Positions 2,439 to 13,326 of a DNA stretch of 13,326 nt are shown here, piece after piece. The DNA comes from a virus. A program made the position numbers and the translations under genes. The stretch is from UHGV virus genome UHGV-0203667, one strand, 5' to 3'. The notes under the pieces were generated by a model that was not told the origin of the DNA, did no database searches, and saw only the letters and a list, made by a program, of their open reading frames with translations. Position 1 is the first letter of the stretch. Each line of letters starts with the position of its first letter.

Positions 2439-2467
2439 AGCCTAAAGAGCATGAGCGACTCTTTAGG
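2439..2467. other. Strong hairpin: 10-bp stem GCCTAAAGAG / CTCTTTAGGC with 9-nt loop
   Basis: Perfect complementarity read from sequence; no flanking U-tract on the plus strand. Confidence 0.4.
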
Positions 2468-2839
2468 CAATCTGTGTGGGGTGACAATGTATTCCATACA
2501 TGACACGTCACCCAATTGTGTGTGGGGAGCGTAGTGCTATAGCACGTAGCTTTATAGTGTGGAGTCCGGATAAGAGACTTCTGTTTCCAATCCGGACCGT
2601 TTAAGCGAGTGGTTTCTCGCGCGGGTGCACGCACACATATATAAAGGATACACTCATAAATCGAAAATAAGGCCCCTAAATGGCCTTCTGGCTGCATTAA
2701 CCTGTGTGAGTAGTGCAATTGCATTACCTGACCTCTAAATCGCGTTAGAATCGATTTTAGAGCGCTTAAGGCAAAAGTGCTCTCCCTCCCTTGTGGACTT
2801 GCTTGTACCTATAGCACACCTAAATGATAATAATTCTCA

Positions 2840-2868
2840 TTGACAATTGGTTGACAATATGATAAGAT
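2840..2868 (+). promoter_or_regulatory. Candidate sigma70 promoter P0 (TTGACA, 17-bp spacer, TAAGAT) within a tandem TTGACAAT duplication
   Basis: -35 TTGACA at 2840-2845, -10 TAAGAT at 2863-2868; a second TTGACAAT at 2851-2858; sits about 35 nt upstream of the RBS of the small ORF at 2904. Confidence 0.35.
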
Positions 2869-2903
2869 TATAAATAGGGGGAGAAACAGATCCGGAGGTC
2901 AAT

Positions 2904-3053
2904 GTGGAAATTACAGATGTAATAGCGATCATCAACCTGGCTGTACTGTGGTGCGGTGTTGCCTACATAGCCGGAGTAACTGCAATCGACAACCTTGAAG
3001 AAAAAATGATAGATAAATACAAAAAGATTGTTGACAATCTCGCAAATAGCTGA
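2904..3053 (+). CDS. Small hydrophobic peptide (49 aa, GTG start), predicted single transmembrane helix with charged C-terminus
   Basis: SD GGAGG at 2894-2898, 5-nt spacing to GTG 2904; translation (V/M)EITDVIAIINLAVLWCGVAYIAGVTAIDNLEEKMIDKYKKIVDNLANS; stop TGA 3051-3053. Below the length cutoff of the ORF track. Overlapped by the minus-strand ORF 2868-3317, judged spurious. Confidence 0.4.
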   Translation: MEITDVIAIINLAVLWCGVAYIAGVTAIDNLEEKMIDKYKKIVDNLANS

Positions 3054-3059
3054 TAAAAT
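3031..3059 (+). promoter_or_regulatory. Near-consensus sigma70 promoter P1: TTGACA, 17-bp spacer, TAAAAT, with an A-rich upstream tract
   Basis: -35 at 3031-3036, -10 at 3054-3059; spacer contains the recurrent motif TCTCGCAAA (3038-3046); A-rich 3001-3026 resembles an UP element. Confidence 0.6.
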
Positions 3060-3065
3060 ATAAAT

Positions 3066-3141
3066 CATAGGGTAATTCTCATCATAGTGAATTTCCTTAA
3101 ACAAAAATGCGGGGGCTTGTCTTAAGTTCCCGTTTCTTTTT
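3066..3141 (+). ncRNA. Candidate ~75-nt small RNA or attenuated leader transcript, from P1 to the hairpin/U-tract at 3110-3141
   Basis: Strong promoter followed about 45 nt downstream by a 9-bp stem CGGGGGCUU / AAGUUCCCG (two G-U pairs) and UUUCUUUUU; no ORF in between. Confidence 0.3.
3110..3141 (+). terminator. Intrinsic terminator/attenuator in the leader upstream of the 3183 gene (also the likely 3' end of the small-peptide transcript)
   Basis: Stem 3110-3118 / 3124-3132, loop GUCUU, U-tract 3133-3141. Confidence 0.5.
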
Positions 3142-3182
3142 AACCGTATATCATTCTGATTCGAATTATAGGAGGCCCCGTT

Positions 3183-3398
3183 ATGGCAAGCAACGGACCG
3201 ACTAGCCCCCTGGTTAGCTGGACTACTGATGAGATCGTCGAAAACGTGCTCAGCGGCAAGTTTTATAAAAATTCTGTTTATGCTTTTATCCGTCGTAATA
3301 AAGGAAAATATCCACACATTGAAGCGGCAATTTTAGAACTGAACCGTCTTCGCCTTGAGCGTGAGCTGGCTAAATACACCAACAACATTGATAAATAA
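3183..3398 (+). CDS. Small hypothetical protein (71 aa), possibly regulatory
   Basis: SD AGGAGG at 3170-3175 with 7-nt spacing to ATG 3183; stop TAA 3396-3398; first gene after P1 and the attenuator. Confidence 0.75.
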   Translation: MASNGPTSPLVSWTTDEIVENVLSGKFYKNSVYAFIRRNKGKYPHIEAAILELNRLRLERELAKYTNNIDK

Positions 3399-3411
3399 TT
3401 ATGGGGGAACT

Positions 3412-4308
3412 ATGGCAAGTAATTACGGGGAGGTTTTTAATCCCCATTTCGAACGCCTCATTCAGTACACTTTTGATAAACCAGTAGCAACAACAATTGC
3501 TAATAAAAAGACTGGAAAAACAAAAGAGCGATTTAATTTAGACCTGATAGAGGTAACAATTTATGGAAAAATGGCAGGTTTTCATTTAAACGGGCAAGAA
3601 ATATTTATCTCAGAGCAGACCTTAGCAAAAATATGTGGTGTGAGTGATAGAAAAATCATCGAATCTATCAAAACTCTGGAAAATGCCGGGCTTATTTCTA
3701 AAGAAAGCCGGAAAGGTATGTCTAACATTTACAAACTGTTAATTACTCCTTCTCAAATCTGCAAAATGTGTGATGAACAGAAGATAGAACCAATGAGTAA
3801 TGCAGGTGGTGAAGATAAACAGCCTCAGGAAGCCCCAAAACAAGCCACACAGCAAGCTAAAAAGGCTAAAGTAGTGCAATTGCCTACCCAAGACACTAAA
3901 GCGCCTCAAATTAACGCTGTTAGTGACAAGCCACGCCGGGGCCGTCCTGTGAAAGATGTAACCGATGGGGGCTGGATTGTCCTGGGTGAGAGTGAAGCTA
4001 AAGATAGAATGCGCTCACTGTGGGAAAGCAAATACAAAGGTTTAAATAAACGTTGCCCGATCCGTTTGTCAAAGATTCAGGAGGATTTTTACACCACAGA
4101 GGAGGTAATACGCCATAAAGGCAATAGAGACGGTGAAATCTGGAAACCGGAAGAATACTGGCATTTAACCAGACCTGTTTTTATTTTTGCAAATAAACTT
4201 ATTGGGATGGGATTTGAAATATTGTTAGATCAAACTTACGGAGATTATCCTGAAATATTGTGGAGAAATGTTAGAAAGAATAAAAAAGGCATTTTAGAGT
4301 TTAGATAA
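3412..4308 (+). CDS. Winged-HTH DNA-binding protein with AT-hook-like linker (KPRRGRPVK) and a C-terminal domain of unknown function; putative replication initiator or regulator
   Basis: ATG 3412 after a GGGGG SD (the track's upstream TTG at 3355 has no RBS); N-terminal wHTH-like segment FISEQTLAKICGVSDRKIIESIKTLENAGLISKE; low-complexity linker EDKQPQEAPKQATQQAKKAK; 299 aa. Confidence 0.8.
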   Translation: MASNYGEVFNPHFERLIQYTFDKPVATTIANKKTGKTKERFNLDLIEVTIYGKMAGFHLNGQEIFISEQTLAKICGVSDRKIIESIKTLENAGLISKESRKGMSNIYKLLITPSQICKMCDEQKIEPMSNAGGEDKQPQEAPKQATQQAKKAKVVQLPTQDTKAPQINAVSDKPRRGRPVKDVTDGGWIVLGESEAKDRMRSLWESKYKGLNKRCPIRLSKIQEDFYTTEEVIRHKGNRDGEIWKPEEYWHLTRPVFIFANKLIGMGFEILLDQTYGDYPEILWRNVRKNKKGILEFR

Positions 4309-4349
4309 AAATACTGATAATCTTATTTTTTTGTTTAAGGAAATTTAAA

Positions 4350-4496
4350 ATGTATGGCGATTTTGATTATTACCTGGAAAAGGAAAAATATTTTGAAGAT
4401 GAACTATCACAACATTTTTCATATTGGGAAGAATATTGTGGTTGGTTAGCTGAAGATCCAGCAGATGAAGAAAATGATTCTGACATCCCTTATTAA
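4350..4496 (+). CDS. Small acidic, aromatic-rich protein (48 aa), hypothetical
   Basis: SD AAGGAA at 4337-4342 with 7-nt spacing to ATG 4350; MYGDFDYYLEKEKYFEDELSQHFSYWEEYCGWLAEDPADEENDSDIPY; below the track cutoff. Confidence 0.4.
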   Translation: MYGDFDYYLEKEKYFEDELSQHFSYWEEYCGWLAEDPADEENDSDIPY

Positions 4497-4587
4497 TATC
4501 CCCAAATAAACCAACAAACTACTAAATAAACTAATTACTAGAACTAGATTGATTGCCCTGATCTTTTAAACGTTCGGAGAATTAATC

Positions 4588-5076
4588 ATGTTCAAATCTG
4601 ATCTTTCTGATTCCCAATTTGAAAAACTGGTAGCACTGCAGAAATATCTCCCCAGTGATGATCAACCAACACGACAGGCCAAGCACTTATTAGTCGAGGG
4701 CTTTACCCCTGAATTCGTTGCGGAATACACAGGCGTTAAACTTGAGAAAGTCCAAAAACTATATGAAGAATCCTGGAATCCACGGTGTCGAGTTCCCCTC
4801 AGTGTCTATAACGAAATAGATAGAGATAGAAATGTCTTCGAAGATCGCCGCCGCAAATCTCTTTTAATGTGGAATTGCGGGATGAATATTGAAGAGATAG
4901 CAAAAGAATTAAAAGTAACCTGCTTTCATGTCTGGGGCTTGTTGAGCGACCTCCTGCCACGTAAGGAGCTTAATCAACGTTTGCCTAAGCCCGGTAGTCG
5001 TGCTTATCGCGAATTTATATTCATCTACCGCCGCCATAGAAATAAAGTCCAGAAAGCAATGGCCCAGAAAGCCTGA
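4588..5076 (+). CDS. Putative DNA-binding protein with two HTH-like segments (162 aa)
   Basis: SD GGAGA at 4576-4580, ATG 4588; HTH-like stretches LLVEGFTPEFVAEYTGVKLEKVQKLY and MWNCGMNIEEIAKELKVTCFHVWGLL; basic C-terminus. Confidence 0.75.
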   Translation: MFKSDLSDSQFEKLVALQKYLPSDDQPTRQAKHLLVEGFTPEFVAEYTGVKLEKVQKLYEESWNPRCRVPLSVYNEIDRDRNVFEDRRRKSLLMWNCGMNIEEIAKELKVTCFHVWGLLSDLLPRKELNQRLPKPGSRAYREFIFIYRRHRNKVQKAMAQKA

Positions 5077-5116: not shown

Positions 5117-5159
5117 CCCCTTCCGGGGCTTGACGTTGTCAAGGCCGCAGCTATGCGGC
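5117..5159 (+). promoter_or_regulatory. Three consecutive hairpins (CCCC-ttcc-GGGG; CTTGAC-gtt-GTCAAG; GCCGCA-gcta-TGCGGC), copy 1 of a conserved structured element (copy 2 at 12577-12622)
   Basis: Read from sequence; lies 20 nt upstream of ATG 5180 in the 4588/5180 intergenic region; copy 2 keeps both stems through compensatory changes. Confidence 0.5.
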
Positions 5160-5179
5160 TCTAATTTAAGGAATTCCAA

Positions 5180-6308: not shown

Positions 6309-8411
6309 ATGGCAATGAAGGAAGTCGCCAGACTAACAAACGTTATTTACTGGGACTCTGATAAATCCTCCTGGCGAAAAGAAGTTAAGCGCTTGGAGGA
6401 TTATAAAAAATCCTGGAAGAAAGCTACCGACGATATAGCTAAAGCGGATTTTAAATCTAATCAGGCTGTGCTCAGAACACAAAGAACACGCGCTAAGGTG
6501 GAAGAGCAGATCGCCAGAGCACAGAAGAAACAACGTGCTCAGGCTGTCAGCCGTCTGACCGGGGGCAATAATCCGGAGCTCTCCTCTATGCGCAAGTTCT
6601 ATCAGCAGCAAGCCAGAGAGGCCGCCAGACAACAAAAACTGTTAGATCGTAGTGTTGGAGATGTTCAGCACAGAAAAGCACGTGTAGGGGCCAACAGTGC
6701 ACGAATCAGCAGCATGTTTGATGGCTCCCTGGTTGCTCAGTTCCAATCCAGAATTCAAAGAGTTAATGCTGATTATGCTAAAGGGGCTATTAACCTGCAG
6801 ACCTATAATCAGAAAATGGCCCGACTCAGATCTGAAATGAAGATGGCAACAGCAGAGGCCGGAAAATTTCAGAGCAAACTGGATAGAGTTGCGATCACAG
6901 GATCTAAGCTGCATGACAACCTGGGGAAACTAAATTCTACTTTAGGCAAGATAGCTATTGGCCTTACTGCCGCTGGCTGGGGTGTTCAGCGTGCTGTTAG
7001 TGGTGCTATGGGTAGCCTTGCAGATCGCAACAGTGCCTACTTCGGTTTGATGGCACAGAACAAGGATGATAAAGCCAAGACTGATCAGCAGATGGCCTAC
7101 GTCAAAAGAATCTCTTATGACTACGGGATGGATCAGCGTGAGACCGAAGGCGGTTTTATGCGCTTTGCTGCAGCCACACCGAGCATAGAAGAGAAAGATA
7201 AACAGGCTCTTTTTGAGGCTATGGCTATTAAAGGTCGCTCAGTGGGTGCTACCGCAGACCAACAGAACAGGGCTATCGTTGCACTAGGGCAAATATATAG
7301 CAAGGGCGGTCGGGTGTATGCGGAAGAGCTTAAGGGCCAACTTTCTGAAGCCCTGGCAGGTTCTCAGGTAGATTTCACTAAGGCCGCTATCGATGCCGGA
7401 GTCATCAAGAAAGAGGAAGAATTTAATAAAGCCCTTGAAGATGGCAAGATCACCATGGATAAGCTTCTCCCTTCTTTGGTGAAAATCTGGTCTGCAGCCA
7501 AGAATACGAAAGCCTTTGCTGAATCCATGAAACAGCCAGAAGTAGCAATGCAGCGCATGAAAAACAGCTTTAACGAGCTGGCGATTCAGTTTATGGGTGT
7601 TGTGGATCCTGCCGATGGCGTTGTTAGCTTATCTGAATCTCTGATCTCCATCTTCGAAGACCTCACCACTGATATGGACGGCAGCGGGAGCGCGGCAAAA
7701 CAGTTTGGTGAAGCAGTCGGTGCTGCCATGCGGGAGATCATGTATTGGGTAGGCTTCGCTAAGGGATATATCGAGGTCAAGGCTAAAGAGTTCGGCATGA
7801 CCGGATCAGAGGTTGGCGAGCTTATCGGGAAACTAGTAGTCGGCTTAGCTGGTCTGAAAGTTATTACCACACTGCTTTCCCCTCTAACCGGATTTGTTTC
7901 ACTTGTCACCCAACTGATAGCCTTGTTAGGTAAAATCCCTGGTATGAGCAAGCTTATGGCATCTGCCTCAGGTGGAACGGCAACAGGAGCAGCAGTTATC
8001 AGTGCAGGCTCTAACGCTGAAAGAAGCTTCATTGATGGCAAGACGCAGGAAATGAGTAAGGAGAACTCAAAACAGGGTGCTTTGTTTGAGCTGGGAAGAT
8101 TTGTCAGCAATGCTGGCGCACTGTTCACACCTGGCGGTGATACTGGTCCTTTGTTCGATCAGGTCAAAGGCTGGTTTAATAAAGGGCCAACATTGACAGT
8201 AGACACTGGCATCAGACCAACACCAACGGGTGGCATAGCTATCCAGAATGGTGGATATCAACCAGTCCAAGTAAATGTAGCCCCACAAGGTGAGATTTCC
8301 GGCAAATGGGAGATAACCATCGATGAGGGGGGAATTGCCAGGGTGATCCAGAAGGAAGTCAGCGATCAGTTGGATTGGAAAGCCACACAGGAATCTAACC
8401 AGCTTTTCTAA
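6309..8411 (+). CDS. Phage tail tape measure protein (700 aa)
   Basis: SD GAGGTG with 7-nt spacing; charged coiled-coil-like N-terminus; motif ALGQIYSKGGRVYAEELKGQLSEALAGSQ, recalled as the conserved tape-measure motif; central hydrophobic segment (LIGKLVVGLAGLKVITTLLSPLTGFVSLVTQLIALLG); Gly-rich C-terminal part. Confidence 0.8.
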   Translation: MAMKEVARLTNVIYWDSDKSSWRKEVKRLEDYKKSWKKATDDIAKADFKSNQAVLRTQRTRAKVEEQIARAQKKQRAQAVSRLTGGNNPELSSMRKFYQQQAREAARQQKLLDRSVGDVQHRKARVGANSARISSMFDGSLVAQFQSRIQRVNADYAKGAINLQTYNQKMARLRSEMKMATAEAGKFQSKLDRVAITGSKLHDNLGKLNSTLGKIAIGLTAAGWGVQRAVSGAMGSLADRNSAYFGLMAQNKDDKAKTDQQMAYVKRISYDYGMDQRETEGGFMRFAAATPSIEEKDKQALFEAMAIKGRSVGATADQQNRAIVALGQIYSKGGRVYAEELKGQLSEALAGSQVDFTKAAIDAGVIKKEEEFNKALEDGKITMDKLLPSLVKIWSAAKNTKAFAESMKQPEVAMQRMKNSFNELAIQFMGVVDPADGVVSLSESLISIFEDLTTDMDGSGSAAKQFGEAVGAAMREIMYWVGFAKGYIEVKAKEFGMTGSEVGELIGKLVVGLAGLKVITTLLSPLTGFVSLVTQLIALLGKIPGMSKLMASASGGTATGAAVISAGSNAERSFIDGKTQEMSKENSKQGALFELGRFVSNAGALFTPGGDTGPLFDQVKGWFNKGPTLTVDTGIRPTPTGGIAIQNGGYQPVQVNVAPQGEISGKWEITIDEGGIARVIQKEVSDQLDWKATQESNQLF

Positions 8412-8523: not shown

Positions 8524-8571
8524 AACCTGCTAACAAAAATCAACCTCTCGCGAGACTAATGTTAGCAGGTT
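8524..8571. repeat. Perfect 12-bp inverted repeat AACCTGCTAACA ... TGTTAGCAGGTT with 24-nt spacer containing palindrome TCTCGCGAGA
   Basis: Arms 8524-8535 and 8560-8571 are exact reverse complements; inner palindrome 8546-8555; the spacer carries a degenerate copy of the AAATCAAC(C/T)TCTCGC motif. Confidence 0.55.
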
Positions 8572-8913: not shown

Positions 8914-9372
8914 TCAGCCTCTCCCCACATTTGACCAGTATTTGATTGCACCGATCAAATCATCATAGTGGCGCATTGCATCATTGAAGCCTTTATAGCT
9001 TGCCCATTGTGGGGAAACCTTGTTGTTGCTGAATTGCCCACTAATCAGGATAGTCTCCAGAATGTCGGCGTATCGCTTGCCAATTCGCTTCCTGACGGCC
9101 TCAGAGCTCCCACCCTTTACGATTGCATTAATCAGGGCTTTTGTGTGTCTCAGGCTCTCATAGAGCATTGCAGCGTGGGCAGATTCCATAAAGGAGCGCT
9201 TAGGCAGATCACCCCACCCCTCAGAATGAATTGCTGCCAATGTGGCGTAATTCAGGCCGCTATAGTGTTTCCCGTCATCCCAGCCAACCGCTACACCTTC
9301 CATCTGTGAGAGCTCTTTATGCAGCTTATCCATCATGCGCTTGTCTATGGTGCAACGGACTTTCGGACTCAT
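8914..9372 (-). CDS. Hypothetical phage virion morphogenesis / head-tail joining protein (152 aa); family not verified
   Basis: Last gene of the leftward structural operon; start ATG overlaps the stop of the upstream gene (ATGA), suggesting translational coupling. Confidence 0.7.
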   Translation of the reverse strand: MSPKVRCTIDKRMMDKLHKELSQMEGVAVGWDDGKHYSGLNYATLAAIHSEGWGDLPKRSFMESAHAAMLYESLRHTKALINAIVKGGSSEAVRKRIGKRYADILETILISGQFSNNKVSPQWASYKGFNDAMRHYDDLIGAIKYWSNVGRG

Positions 9373-10181
9373 TTGTTGATCTCCGTGATGTCATCAAGCA
9401 ACATGTTGGCCTTATCAATCATCGTTTCGTGGAACTCATTCGACACGACAGACTTATCACCTGCTGCAATCTTTCCCGCTGCCTCTCCCTGTGCATATTC
9501 CCCGCGATGCTTAGCCCTGGTTGATTTCGTAGCAGCATTGCCAGCGTTACTACCCTCTTTAGCACTGTTAACAGCACCCTTTTGCTGTGTTTTATTCACC
9601 TTCTTACTGTTAGTGAAAACTCCGGCATTTTCGACCATCTTCACCTTGAAGGTGCGGAATTCTTCAAAAGTGCAATCAATAGTGATGCAGTCGCCAGAGG
9701 AAGAGCTACGCTTAACTTCACATTTCGTCATGATGAAGTTCTCAAGGAGTCCGACATCTTCACCCACCAGGCTGATAATCTGGCGCTTGTCTCTCATTTC
9801 CATAAGTGCCTGAACAGCGGCAGCAGGGCGCATAGATTCACGGGGATTATCTGGATCAGTGTTCCGGTCGATGTAGTTCTCTTTCCGGATGATATGAGGG
9901 GAAGAGGTAATAATACCCGTAAAGCTGACAGATTTATCTTTAATGACGGCATGGTCTGACATGGTGGTGCCATCCTCGACCGCATAGCTCGATTTCTCAA
10001 CAGGGAACGAATAGCTGACATCAGAGATAGAGTCAAAGAAGATAGCCACATTATCGGTATAGTTGAAGCCATCCATCATATTTTTGTTTTGTGAATATCC
10101 CCCACACATAACAGTGAATGCAGGAGATCTCGACTCAGCTTGTTTTGCAGCTGTCAGAGCATCACTAGCCATATTAAACAT
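9369..10181 (-). CDS. Hypothetical phage structural protein (270 aa) with Lys/Ala/Gly-rich low-complexity C-terminal half
   Basis: In the head operon downstream of the major capsid gene; GGAGG lies 1 nt before ATG 10181 and 10 nt before the in-frame ATG 10172, so the true start may be 10172. Confidence 0.7.
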   Translation of the reverse strand: MFNMASDALTAAKQAESRSPAFTVMCGGYSQNKNMMDGFNYTDNVAIFFDSISDVSYSFPVEKSSYAVEDGTTMSDHAVIKDKSVSFTGIITSSPHIIRKENYIDRNTDPDNPRESMRPAAAVQALMEMRDKRQIISLVGEDVGLLENFIMTKCEVKRSSSSGDCITIDCTFEEFRTFKVKMVENAGVFTNSKKVNKTQQKGAVNSAKEGSNAGNAATKSTRAKHRGEYAQGEAAGKIAAGDKSVVSNEFHETMIDKANMLLDDITEINK

Positions 10182-10587: not shown

Positions 10588-11631
10588 TTATTTAGCCTTG
10601 GCTTTTGCCAGAGCAGCGGCGGCGGTGTTTTTAACACTCACTTTAACCACCACCTCGGGCATCATATTCATAAATGCGTATGAGCTCTCGCAAAAGACCT
10701 CGCGCTTAGCTCTTGAATCTTGCATATACATGAAAGCTTCACGTGCAGCGCCGTTTGCCAGCTGCAGATTGCGAGCGCAAGGGCCAAAAAATTGAGTATA
10801 AACACCCATATCGCCCAGTGCATAAGGCTGGAATTGTGGGACCAGATAAGCAGTATTCTCTGGCAGACTATCCATTTGCACCACACGCAGGGCTAAGCCC
10901 GGAATGCGGAAGGTCGGGAAGCCCGGCAGAATATCCTCAGGGAACATCAGACCTTTGTCGGTAATGTTCTGATTGCCGAACAACAGCACTTTACGAAGCA
11001 GCTCGTCAGTCTGAATTGCAGCAAAGAGTTCAGCACGGCAGAACAGGGTGAAACCACGCAGGGCACGAACGACACCACGCTGTTTAACCTTGCTCAGTGC
11101 AACCAGGTCCTGCAGCTGTTTAAGGATATCTTGAGCTAGATCCACTTCAGAGGTGGACTGTTCTACTCCCAGCAGTTCGCACACATTCAGTTCTTTACCC
11201 TTGGTGAGGATAATTTTGTTCTCAAAGAGAGCAAGCTGGCGTGCTTCTTCGTGGGTCTGGCGTAAGCCTTCGCCAAGCTGAATAACACGACGAGCGGTTA
11301 CAGACTCTAAATTCTCTTCGGAATCTTTGCCCGGAACACGGATACCTTGCCAGTCTGACGGGAATATGGCCGAGCTGGCGGCTGTAAAGGCCATGTCGCC
11401 CGTGCCCGTTTCACGCTCATCTGCGGTAATGGTAGCCATCTGTTCACCGTAGCGCGGATACTGACCGAAAGCGGTTTGTTTCACCCTGCGAACTTTGTCG
11501 TACTCAAATTTGAACGTCGAAGAATAGACGGTAGTATTAAACACGTTCATTGCTGAAATAATCTGGTTATCCAGCGGGATATCTTTAATCAGACCACACA
11601 GATCGCGAACTTCGAATTCTTTCTTAGCCAT
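10588..11631 (-). CDS. Major capsid protein, lambda gpE-like (347 aa)
   Basis: Perfect SD AAGGAGG 6 nt upstream of ATG 11631 (the track's longer N-terminal extension is discounted); size about 340 aa; segments recalled as resembling lambda gpE (RRVIQLGEGLRQTHEEARQLA ~ RRRIIMQNMRDEELAIAQVEE; C-terminal REAFMYMQDS...PEVVVKV ~ AREFTMIQSAP...DEFVSV); preceded by a decoration-sized gene. Confidence 0.7.
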   Translation of the reverse strand: MAKKEFEVRDLCGLIKDIPLDNQIISAMNVFNTTVYSSTFKFEYDKVRRVKQTAFGQYPRYGEQMATITADERETGTGDMAFTAASSAIFPSDWQGIRVPGKDSEENLESVTARRVIQLGEGLRQTHEEARQLALFENKIILTKGKELNVCELLGVEQSTSEVDLAQDILKQLQDLVALSKVKQRGVVRALRGFTLFCRAELFAAIQTDELLRKVLLFGNQNITDKGLMFPEDILPGFPTFRIPGLALRVVQMDSLPENTAYLVPQFQPYALGDMGVYTQFFGPCARNLQLANGAAREAFMYMQDSRAKREVFCESSYAFMNMMPEVVVKVSVKNTAAAALAKAKAK

Positions 11632-11642
11632 TTTCAACCTCC

Positions 11643-11978
11643 TTATTGTGCAACACGCAAATCGCCATTGCTGGCAGCAACAACAGCGGCTAAGCCGTCT
11701 TTGTCCACATAGGCCGGATTGATGTAGCAACCTTTGTTCGCAACAACGATAAAGGAATCACCAACTTCAGCACGTTCTACAACCAGCAGCGGAGTTTTAT
11801 CGGTGTGCGTTGCTTTAACGAAGGTCTCAACCTCGCCAGCCTCAGTCACCACAACAACAGTGCCAGCCGGAATCTCAGCCTTAACTTTGTTTTTAACTTC
11901 AACGTCGCGAATACTAAATTGCTCATCTGCGGCGTATGAAATGATGTGTCCGCGTGTGCGGATAGTCATATCTCTCAT
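11643..11978 (-). CDS. Head decoration-like protein (111 aa), first gene of the head operon
   Basis: SD AGGTGA 5 nt upstream of ATG 11978; size and position immediately upstream of the major capsid gene match the lambda gpD arrangement; no sequence-level similarity to gpD confirmed. Confidence 0.6.
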   Translation of the reverse strand: MRDMTIRTRGHIISYAADEQFSIRDVEVKNKVKAEIPAGTVVVVTEAGEVETFVKATHTDKTPLLVVERAEVGDSFIVVANKGCYINPAYVDKDGLAAVVAASNGDLRVAQ

Positions 11979-12458
11979 TTGATCACCTGCGATTTAAATT
12001 AACTCCCCTCAAAGGGCTCAGGTATAACCTCTCAAACCACGACAGGCTCGGGCCGAAAAGTTATGCCGGAAATCTAAAGGGGGATTGATATAAGGAGAGG
12101 GAGATAGCCCCGCACCGTCCAAGCGGGGGCTATTCCATATGGGGAAAACCAACAACAGTTGGCTGATAGTTCACTGCATGGTTACGGTTGCTAGAGAGCA
12201 CTATCACGAAAGGCACTCCCCCGAATCAGTTCAGGCTGCGGTCACATCAGCGGGGAAATACCTTTCGGGATAGCTACCCACACCGAAAACCCGCAAAAGA
12301 AAACTGTGTGGATAACTAGCCCAATAGGAGAATTAATCGACCACTCTAAGATGATCAGGGTAGTGTTATTTATAAGGCGGCACCGCTACCTGGTCGCCGT
12401 TACTTTGGAGGAAAATACGGCAAATCACCTTCGCTAAATGATTCACGGTATACTGTAT

Positions 12459-12487
12459 ATTATATCAGTATTTACTCACATTGTCAA
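12459..12487 (-). promoter_or_regulatory. Consensus sigma70 promoter P2 for the leftward head operon: TTGACA, 17-bp spacer, TATAAT on the minus strand
   Basis: Minus-strand -35 is the complement of 12482-12487 and -10 the complement of 12459-12464; 22 of 29 positions identical to P1 (3031-3059); leaves a ~470-nt untranslated leader before ATG 11978. Confidence 0.6.
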
Positions 12488-12576: not shown

Positions 12577-12622
12577 CCTGCTTTGCAGGCTTGGCACACA
12601 GCCAAGGTCGCAGCTATGCGAC
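12577..12622 (+). promoter_or_regulatory. Three-hairpin element copy 2 (CCTGC-ttt-GCAGG; CTTGGC-acaca-GCCAAG; GTCGCA-gcta-TGCGAC)
   Basis: Same three-stem architecture as 5117-5159; stem 2 differs by A>G paired with T>C, stem 3 by C>T paired with G>A; loop GCTA conserved. Confidence 0.5.
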
Positions 12623-12629
12623 TCCTATC

Positions 12630-12660: not shown

Positions 12661-12757
12661 ATCTTTTGATCAATATCAATGTTTTCCTGGGATTTGCCCG
12701 GCTATAGTTCGAATCAAGGAAGGGGAGCATTGATAGCACCAAAACCGAACAAACAAA

Positions 12758-12772
12758 TCAACTTCTCGCAAA
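12758..12772 (+). promoter_or_regulatory. Conserved leader motif TCAACTTCTCGCAAA directly 5' of the SD of the 12784 gene (identical copy at 13301-13315)
   Basis: 15-nt exact repeat; both copies are followed by an SD-like sequence (AAAGGTGA / AAAGGGG); the TCTCGCAAA core also lies in the P1 spacer (3038-3046). Confidence 0.45.
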
Positions 12773-12783
12773 AGGTGATAGTT

Positions 12784-13269: not shown

Positions 13270-13300
13270 TAGGAACAGTCCAACAGGTTATTAACTAAAT

Positions 13301-13315
13301 TCAACTTCTCGCAAA
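13301..13315 (+). promoter_or_regulatory. Second copy of leader motif TCAACTTCTCGCAAA followed by SD-like AAAGGGG; downstream gene start lies beyond the window
   Basis: Exact 15-nt match to 12758-12772, 32 nt after the stop of the 13009 gene. Confidence 0.4.
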
Positions 13316-13326
13316 GGGGTACCGTC

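Follow-up and report, generated by a model that had tools for sequence, protein, structure and literature searches.

The locus studied here raises a simple question: what is the role of a near-consensus promoter whose transcript meets an intrinsic terminator before it reaches the first downstream gene? An earlier note on this DNA had offered two answers, a short RNA or a transcription attenuator. Both fit the present analysis and they are not exclusive. The operon contains a target that co-varies with the RNA, and its plus strand shows no other promoter-like site of at least 9/12 from the terminator to position 4293. The reading favoured here, with a probability of roughly 0.7, is that the terminated leader RNA would act both as an attenuator of a replication operon and as a trans repressor of orf48, an acidic ORF of that operon. 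Because RNA and target have changed together in 56 related plasmids, a genuine regulatory RNA, of a general type already known, is very probable.

The stretch of DNA analysed (the window; 13,326 bp, to which all coordinates refer) is one complete plasmid from an E. coli/Shigella family whose circular members measure approximately 13–14 kb. Relatives were found in 7 of 5,426 complete E. coli genomes, with 82–89% identity and plasmid-borne each time, and PLSDB added two more complete plasmids. Products annotated in these relatives include a major capsid protein, a tape measure protein, a baseplate protein, two HTH proteins and hypothetical proteins. The 48-aa protein of orf48 was indexed in 1,762 assembly blocks, the contigs being mostly 10–20 kb, and homologues of orf71, the first gene past the terminator, occurred on E. 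coli/Shigella contigs only, nearly all of 13–14 kb. Relatives were collected via protein look-ups and 83 distinct related loci were examined. This family of 13-kb E. coli plasmids appears to be unpublished, and no literature on it as a satellite was found. No phage homologue was obtained either for the RNA region (blastn, E ≤ 1) or for orf48 (tblastn, E ≤ 10), a scan of viral contigs and genome contigs gave no match to the exact promoter pattern, and a tRNA/tmRNA scan of the window gave none.

The start of the locus comprises the following features.

2840–2868, plus strand: upstream promoter of the small hydrophobic ORF (TTGACA, 17-nt spacer, TAAGAT; TG-extended; 10/12).
2904–3053, plus strand: small hydrophobic ORF of 49 aa, the N-terminal half being hydrophobic; relatives have it annotated as a hypothetical protein.
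3031–3059, plus strand: promoter P1, with TTGACA (3031–3036), a 17-nt spacer, TGn and TAAAAT (3054–3059), and an A-rich tract upstream.

P1 conforms to a sigma-70 promoter, carries the hexamers, spacing and A-rich upstream tract described in the earlier note and scored 11/12, the second-best promoter match in the window, with TG at −15/−14. Since the promoter scan of the window was not enriched over shuffles (22 sites against 23.9 expected), this match alone is weak proof and the real support is conservation. Specifically, the −35, the 17-nt spacing and the TGn were invariant in 83 of 83 related loci, with a −10 of TAAAAT in 73 and TAAACT in 10, and this conservation extended to a divergent backbone with different flanks and a different upstream small ORF. 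On sequence grounds, P1 is expected to be strong and constitutive. The hexamers of the 2840–2868 promoter were kept in essentially all window-type loci, a few having TTGTCA at a second, overlapping TTGACA copy; the divergent backbone L060 showed a TTGACA-17-TAAAAT counterpart of this promoter and a 53-aa homologue of the 49-aa ORF. The −35 of P1 had been placed inside the 3' end of a small-peptide ORF, and indeed the last codons of the 49-aa ORF hold the −35 and spacer, so that the RNA is also the 3' UTR of this ORF. An antisense promoter-like site at 3091–3064 (9/12) was at chance level.

The P1 spacer was also said to carry a recurrent motif, TCTCGCAAA, suggestive of operator control. The recurrence is real, with four exact copies in the window against 0.12 expected, two of which flank the 86-aa HTH gene and are kept in 10 of 10 complete plasmids. 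The spacer itself occurs as two main alleles, TCTCGCAAATAG and TTTGACGAATGT, the latter being commoner, with minor variants; their differences are partly synonymous in the 49-aa ORF, whose C-terminus is encoded by the TCTCGCAAA copy in the spacer. As this copy is restricted to one of the two alleles, TCTCGCAAA was rejected as a family-wide P1 operator; the same RNA accompanies both.

Downstream of P1, the following elements were recognized.

3066–3141, plus strand: predicted primary transcript of ~75 nt, with a 5' stem-loop, a single-stranded A-rich linker, a terminator hairpin and a U-tail.
3068–3099, plus strand: SL1, the 5' stem-loop (−7.9 kcal/mol, z −2.65).
3090–3107, plus strand: recognition sequence AAUUUCCUUAAACAAAAA, the exact complement of 4328–4345.
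3109–3141, plus strand: intrinsic terminator, an 11-pair hairpin (3109–3133) including G·U pairs, then the U-tract UUCUUUUU (TTCTTTTT).

The RNA would start at 3066–3067. The fold of 3066–3141 reached −22 kcal/mol (z −4.1), with none of 200 shuffles as good, and its layout was the same in three of the sequence classes described below (A, B and D). At 3109–3141 a GC-rich hairpin directly precedes a U-tract on the transcribed strand, giving −13.6 kcal/mol (z −3.8) as plus-strand RNA vs −6.8 kcal/mol as minus-strand RNA. The hairpin is stable only on the plus strand because multiple pairs are G·U, and this asymmetry identifies a plus-strand signal; the terminator of the earlier note therefore stands, with a longer stem than the 9 bp it had counted. 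Sequence features that bear on a putative Hfq-type sRNA are the terminator hairpin, a U-tail of 8 and an A/U-rich linker. The 3' arm of SL1 includes part of an anti-SD sequence (AAUUUCCUU). By eye, two changes in the SL1 of locus L059 convert a mismatch and a wobble to Watson-Crick pairs, and the SL1 of locus L017 has a different upper stem that retains self-complementarity; a MAFFT alignment of the RNAs (13 distinct sequences) showed too little variation for covariation within SL1 to be counted formally, so that its structural support is that seen by eye. The whole window gave no Rfam match at gathering score, and the only match obtained at E ≤ 10 over 2700–4600, to L20-leader, was spurious (21.8 bits against a threshold of 58.7).

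A structured leader located between a promoter and the first gene is also what would be expected of a ligand- or ribosome-sensing attenuator, that is, a riboswitch or leader-peptide system that controls termination at 3141 by switching between leader folds. We regard this as extremely improbable: in addition to the lack of an Rfam family at gathering score, the only leader ORF, at 3107–3205, is without an SD and is not conserved, its ATG being missing in class B, inspection by eye showed no antiterminator sequence complementary to the terminator's 5' arm, and in class C the entire leader sequence is swapped.

The genes beyond the terminator were described as regulator genes in the earlier note. 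The stretch 3183–5076 is instead a replication module, without regulators, in the order 71-aa ORF, HTH_36 initiator, 48-aa acidic ORF and 162-aa ORF; iterons are found at 2213–2322, upstream of the RNA locus.

3183–3398, plus strand: orf71, the first gene past the terminator, 71 aa, no family match.
3412–4308, plus strand: replication initiator, 298 aa, winged-helix HTH_36, O-like/DnaD-like (PF13730, 1.3e-7).
4328–4352, plus strand: target site UUUUUGUUUAAGGAAAUU, extended to the AUG, covering the SD (AAGGA, 4337–4341) and the start codon.
4350–4496, plus strand: orf48, a 48-aa highly acidic, aromatic ORF ending in ...NDSDIPY, directly 3' of the initiator gene.

The SD noted just before the first downstream gene is present (AGGAGG at 3171–3176, ATG at 3183). 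The initiator also matched phrog_270, 678, 391 and others, down to 1.3e-10, and orf48 had no match in Pfam, PHROG or phages; its end appears to resemble the C-terminal tip of SSB, DDDIPF. No plus-strand promoter-like site scoring at least 9/12 lies between the terminator (3141) and 4293, so that transcription of orf71 and the initiator most probably requires read-through. Transcription of orf48 could also start separately, from a weak promoter-like site (4293–4321, plus strand, 9/12).

The link between the two ends of this region came from a repeat search, in which 3083–3107 was complementary to 4328–4352 on the same strand. Exact pairing covers 18 nt (3090–3107 with 4328–4345), is extended to 20 bp through one A-U and one G·U pair and, past a 2-nt mismatch, resumes with three further pairs on the AUG. 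On the RNA side the match comprises the 3' arm of SL1 and the linker, just 5' of the terminator; 10 of the 18 pairing bases are predicted inside the SL1 stem, so that pairing would require opening of the stem. The 18-mer has one plus and one minus occurrence in the plasmid, where 0.07 would be expected even with 3 mismatches. Complementarity was scored ungapped, along with seed-only duplexes against 40-nt windows; an unrestricted RNAduplex run of the whole RNA against 60-nt windows was dropped for its unphysical long-loop duplexes. No ungapped complementarity to the RNA on either strand of the plasmid ranked above the 3090–3107/4328–4345 match, and the target duplex was the best of 2,635 windows from both strands (−26.1 kcal/mol, z −7.7). 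The complementarity is partly generic anti-SD (CCUU/AAGG). The target region alone showed no significant structure (z −0.13). A second candidate target, at the RBS of a 147-aa ORF (5180), paired over only 12 bp with a bulge and lay outside the top duplexes. From the position of the match at its SD and AUG, orf48 is most likely the gene regulated by the RNA.

Comparison of the related loci revealed three classes in which RNA and target differ together. In class A, which includes the window, the RNA ...CCUUAAACAAAAA pairs with the target UUUUUGUUUAAGG; in class B, the RNA ...CCUUUAGUAGACUG pairs with the target CAGUAUUCUAAAGG at 17 of 19 positions, with two mismatches. The class-specific bases lie in the single-stranded linker, at ~3099–3108. 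In class C, the same promoter position is followed by an unrelated RNA of 95 nt, with two 5' stem-loops, a single-stranded linker and, in the same place, a terminator formed by an unrelated hairpin (GCUGGG-UUACAU-CCCAGC) and a U-tract. This RNA pairs at 22–23 of 25 positions across the start codon of another acidic ORF, which has 62 aa and ends in ...DSCIPY; the duplex ranked first in 5 of 5 loci scanned (−27 to −31 kcal/mol, z −5.5 to −6.3), and in the one whole class C plasmid no complementarity was better than this match. Among distinct loci, RNA and target were concordant in 15 A/A, 20 B/B and 21 C/C cases and discordant in none, three further loci that end before the target being outside these counts; the three classes represent only about three independent events. 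Each of three markers was found with both class A and class B, namely the allele of the P1 spacer (20 nt 5' of the RNA), that of orf71, and that of the initiator C-terminus, which adjoins the target. The intervening alleles have thus been reshuffled by recombination with the match kept, which argues that selection, and not only linkage, maintains it. An exposed seed complementary to a target, with pairing kept in evolution, is what characterizes trans base-pairing sRNAs, and both were found here.

The match was first detected as a DNA inverted repeat, in a plasmid that has other repeats (the iterons and the TCTCGCAAA copies), and could in principle represent a recombination site or two inverted binding sites for a protein, such as the initiator or the 86-aa HTH protein. 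Substitutions that pair only as G·U point to the RNA level rather than the DNA level, since they are mismatches in DNA: inspection by eye shows a U·G pair retained in the target variant AAGGAAGUU, and in a divergent class C backbone a C-to-U change gives G·U and a U-to-G change creates a new C-G pair. Moreover, the classes are independent of initiator alleles, class C pairs a quite different sequence at equivalent RNA positions, and the sites coincide with the RNA linker and with the SD/AUG. A DNA-level role for the repeat is therefore given hardly any credence.

The remaining 24 loci, here class D, have no separate acidic ORF. In these loci a related acidic tail, ...NDSAIPY, forms the C-terminus of the initiator, with homology to orf48 at the DNA level across the stop codon. 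The fusion of this tail to the initiator ties the target to replication, and orf48 is very probably a module of the replication machinery. Class D keeps the promoter, RNA and terminator, the stem being one compensated pair shorter. No convincing target of the class D RNA was found in 8 whole plasmids, where the top matches were discontinuous duplexes within the tape-measure coding region or a lone 11-mer, none at a ribosome-binding site. The element must then be kept in class D for another reason, such as attenuation, termination of the small-ORF mRNA or an outside target.

Retention of promoter and terminator in class D without a recognizable target would suit an explanation by plain transcriptional punctuation, whereby the hairpin ends the mRNA of the 49-aa ORF, P1 is a leaky operon promoter and the complementarity is without function. 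The transcript of the 2840 promoter is indeed closed by this terminator. This explanation nevertheless leaves two observations unaccounted for, namely the single match of 18–20 bp falling on an SD and AUG, and the 56 concordant loci with none discordant despite intervening recombination; it also puts the operon's own promoter upstream of an efficient terminator. We consider it very unlikely.

In the preferred reading, that of an operon attenuator whose short RNA represses orf48 in trans, P1 would initiate at ~3066 and most transcripts would end at 3109–3141, so that the ~75-nt RNA would accumulate; termination efficiency is presumably high, and a minority of P1 transcripts would pass the terminator. 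Read-through from P1 and from the 2840 promoter, whose transcript would meet the same terminator, would provide the mRNA for orf71, the initiator, orf48 and the genes beyond, and the terminator, as an attenuator, would hold the replication operon low. Free RNA would pair in trans with 4328–4347 (or up to 4352), beginning from the linker, and by covering the SD and reaching the AUG of orf48 would block its translation; pairing may also trigger cleavage or polarity on genes downstream. As the RNA dose would track plasmid dose, the outcome would be a dosage-dependent negative feedback on replication. This role, and with it a function of the RNA in setting copy number, is the most likely one, since the acidic peptide is an initiator module in some relatives and the RNA would be dose-linked, but it is proposed only tentatively. 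The RNA/target classes might represent specificity types, of incompatibility or immunity. The sequences themselves show the signals with their conservation and directionality, the complementarity and the co-variation, whereas accumulation of the short RNA, its action in trans, repression and the copy-number role are inferred.

The two complementary stretches, 1.2 kb apart, share a strand and presumably a transcript, and the co-variation fits pairing in cis as well as in trans. It could thus be argued that pairing occurs only in cis, in the read-through mRNA, where it would set orf48 translation relative to the initiator, the short RNA being an inactive by-product. This is improbable on three counts. 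The related system IsrK acts in trans (PMC4825925), a 1.2-kb loop over translated genes would be kinetically disfavoured, and a strong promoter with a prompt, good terminator (−13.6 kcal/mol, U-tract) would produce a large excess of free RNA with the same sequence, also able to pair in trans.

The proposed repressor RNA can be compared with several known systems. The lambda oop RNA, cited as a parallel in the earlier note, is a poor comparison because it is a cis-antisense RNA. R1 CopA, ColE1 RNA I and IncB/IncI RNAI are constitutive small RNAs whose dose follows plasmid dose and which limit a replication function; countertranscripts of the CopA/RNA I type are encoded on the opposite strand to their target, are fully complementary to it and have sequence classes that define specificity. 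The plasmid RNA is instead on the same strand as its target, 1.2 kb off and with 18–25 nt of complementarity, and the target is an accessory acidic ORF rather than the initiator's own leader; with RNA and target on the same strand, this is not a classical copy-number countertranscript.

Immunity RNAs of P4 and P1 were also named in the earlier note, and a closer parallel is found in the c4 antisense RNA of phages P1 and P7, whose heteroimmunity was reportedly traced by Citron and Schuster (1990) to matched RNA/target changes. The c4 RNA of the immI operon pairs at the ribosome-binding region of icd, shutting off icd and what follows (PMC8198154). As with c4, the plasmid RNA and its target ORF belong to one operon and have the same orientation, the RNA coming first; the pairing is at the ribosome-binding region, and related elements differ by matched RNA and target changes. 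The differences are that the plasmid RNA has no sequence or structure homology to c4 (no match to Rfam C4 at E ≤ 10 over 2700–4600), that c4 is cut from a longer transcript whereas the plasmid RNA has its own promoter ~7 nt upstream and its own terminator, that c4 uses two short recognition blocks and the plasmid RNA one contiguous block, and that the P1 operon controls an antirepressor whereas the plasmid operon holds a replication initiator.

In Gifsy-1, one promoter gives both the short terminated RNA IsrK, which acts in trans, and a read-through polycistronic mRNA (PMC4825925). The architecture of the plasmid locus would fit such short and long forms, with the target at 4328 lying within the presumed long form. 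IsrK, however, activates translation by refolding the mRNA near its own sequence (PMC4825925), whereas the plasmid pairing covers an SD/AUG 1.2 kb downstream and predicts repression; the plasmid RNA also lacks homology to IsrK (no match to the Rfam IsrK model). The CI RNA of satellite phage P4 (Sabbattini et al. 1995) derives from the untranslated leader of a replication-gene operon (PMC4825925). CI pairs with complementary sites in its own transcript, keeping the replication genes off, and belongs to a phage-dependent element able to live as a plasmid, which are points of likeness; CI is processed and causes premature termination at sites upstream and downstream of itself, whereas the plasmid RNA would target a ribosome-binding site through a pairing that forms no terminator, and shows no homology to CI. 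Finally, MicL and DapZ are 3'-UTR-derived sRNAs with an internal promoter (PMC4825925). The plasmid RNA is similar in having its promoter in the 3' end of the upstream coding region and in sharing the terminator of the upstream gene; MicL and DapZ regulate unlinked genes, whereas the plasmid RNA doubles as the 5' leader of its own proposed target operon. The plasmid RNA resembles c4, P4 CI and IsrK in its logic, in which an RNA from the leader of an operon acts on a later site of that operon. It is nonetheless outside these families, with no Rfam match, a predicted primary terminated transcript, a single recognition block and a location in a replication operon.

If confirmed, these findings would describe a compact RNA switch with three natural matched classes, swappable by ~10 base changes, located in the replication operon of a plasmid family present in well over a thousand E. 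coli assemblies. The c4/CI/IsrK logic, by which a leader RNA acts on its own operon, would be extended to plasmid replication control, for which, to our knowledge, control by RNA is otherwise known only from opposite-strand countertranscripts. A wider interpretation, which we regard as doubtful, is that the classes form an RNA specificity code, that the leader-derived RNA limits an initiator adaptor with an SSB-like tail, and that these plasmids, with their capsid, tape-measure and baseplate genes, are satellites of large virulent rV5-like phages whose replication the RNA would restrain until the helper phage arrives. If this were true, it would represent plasmid replication control by RNA unlike every described countertranscript system. 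Confirmation of the RNA switch would also single out orf48, whose ...DS(D/A/C)IPY end is conserved, as the step sensitive to dose, and orf48 may thereby offer an entry point to the replication and the helper-phage dependence of plasmids that bear phage genes.

The window contains a 2.3-kb stretch (540-2870) in which no relative has an annotated gene, and which is presumably the origin. CCCACAC-type motifs are numerous within it, and it also contains the following features:

569-609 and 981-999, CCCTATTT repeats
2213-2322, four iterons of 21 nt each
2356-2378 and 2440-2468, minus strand, two terminator-like hairpins

The stretch greatly exceeds the length required of an origin.

Two types of small ORF were also examined. 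The 49-aa ORF at 2904-3053 is conserved, has a separate near-consensus promoter and is predicted to encode one membrane helix, with a homologous 53-aa ORF carried by the divergent backbone (the relative with differing sequence around P1). A search for complementarity between this ORF and the predicted ~75-nt RNA transcribed from P1 found none. Its product may be a small membrane protein or toxin-like. The second type is defined by a common C-terminal end, D-S-x-I-P-Y, present in the window ORF at 4350-4496, at the C-terminus of the initiator of related plasmid L006 and in a 62-aa ORF of related plasmid L009. These peptides are acidic and rich in aromatics, occur either as separate ORFs or fused to the initiator, and gave no match in Pfam, PHROG or phages; their end presumably resembles the C-terminal tip of SSB (DDDIPF).

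Putative regulatory elements were located outside these regions, as follows:

12459-12487, minus strand, TG-extended promoter matching at 12/12 positions
~12104-12134, strong hairpin ATAGCCCCGC...GCGGGGGCTAT in the leader of the capsid operon
12755-12775 and 13298-13318, motif AA(A/T)TCAACTTCTCGCAAA(A/G)GG, with weaker copies at 8537-8557 and 11996-12016
5140-5161 and 12603-12624, 22-nt direct repeat, CAAGGCCGCAGCTATGCGGCTC and CAAGGTCGCAGCTATGCGACTC

The promoter, the sole perfect 12/12 TG-extended match in the whole window, is directed leftward into a ~480-nt leader without ORF that extends down to 11978 and precedes the capsid operon; this leader is a candidate for a further RNA element. 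The AA(A/T) motif lies directly 5' of the start codons on both sides of the 86-aa HTH gene, an arrangement kept in 10/10 complete plasmids, and may be a common regulatory or translational signal. The direct repeat copies stand upstream of two gene blocks and differ at two positions, both compensatory in the hairpin (GCCGCA/TGCGGC vs GTCGCA/TGCGAC); the repeat looks like an element with conserved structure.

Plasmid L003 (NZ_CP043822.1, 39.6 kb) contains the 13-kb unit three times in tandem, with one copy partly degraded, which reflects either multimerization or an error of assembly. Other relatives (L080, a 30-kb contig; L013; L018) were linked to genes for a Tn3-family transposase, a resolvase and an aminoglycoside phosphotransferase, or lay within far larger contigs (79 kb, 353 kb), which suggests occasional co-integration or integration.

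The 13-kb window plasmid has an initiator and iterons of its own, and no integrase gene was found in the whole window. Its phage-like genes include:

6309-8411, plus strand, tape measure gene
9369-10181, minus strand, baseplate/Dit-like gene
10588-11730, minus strand, capsid-like gene

The capsid-like gene, accompanied by tail genes, shared only ~25% identity with major head proteins of rV5/FV3 type. Proteins resembling the HTH of the plasmid initiator occur in phages of 147-151 kb (inny, muut, Mt1B1_P17). No paper treating this plasmid family as a satellite was found in the literature; the window plasmid may represent a hitherto undescribed satellite of large virulent phages, borne on a plasmid.
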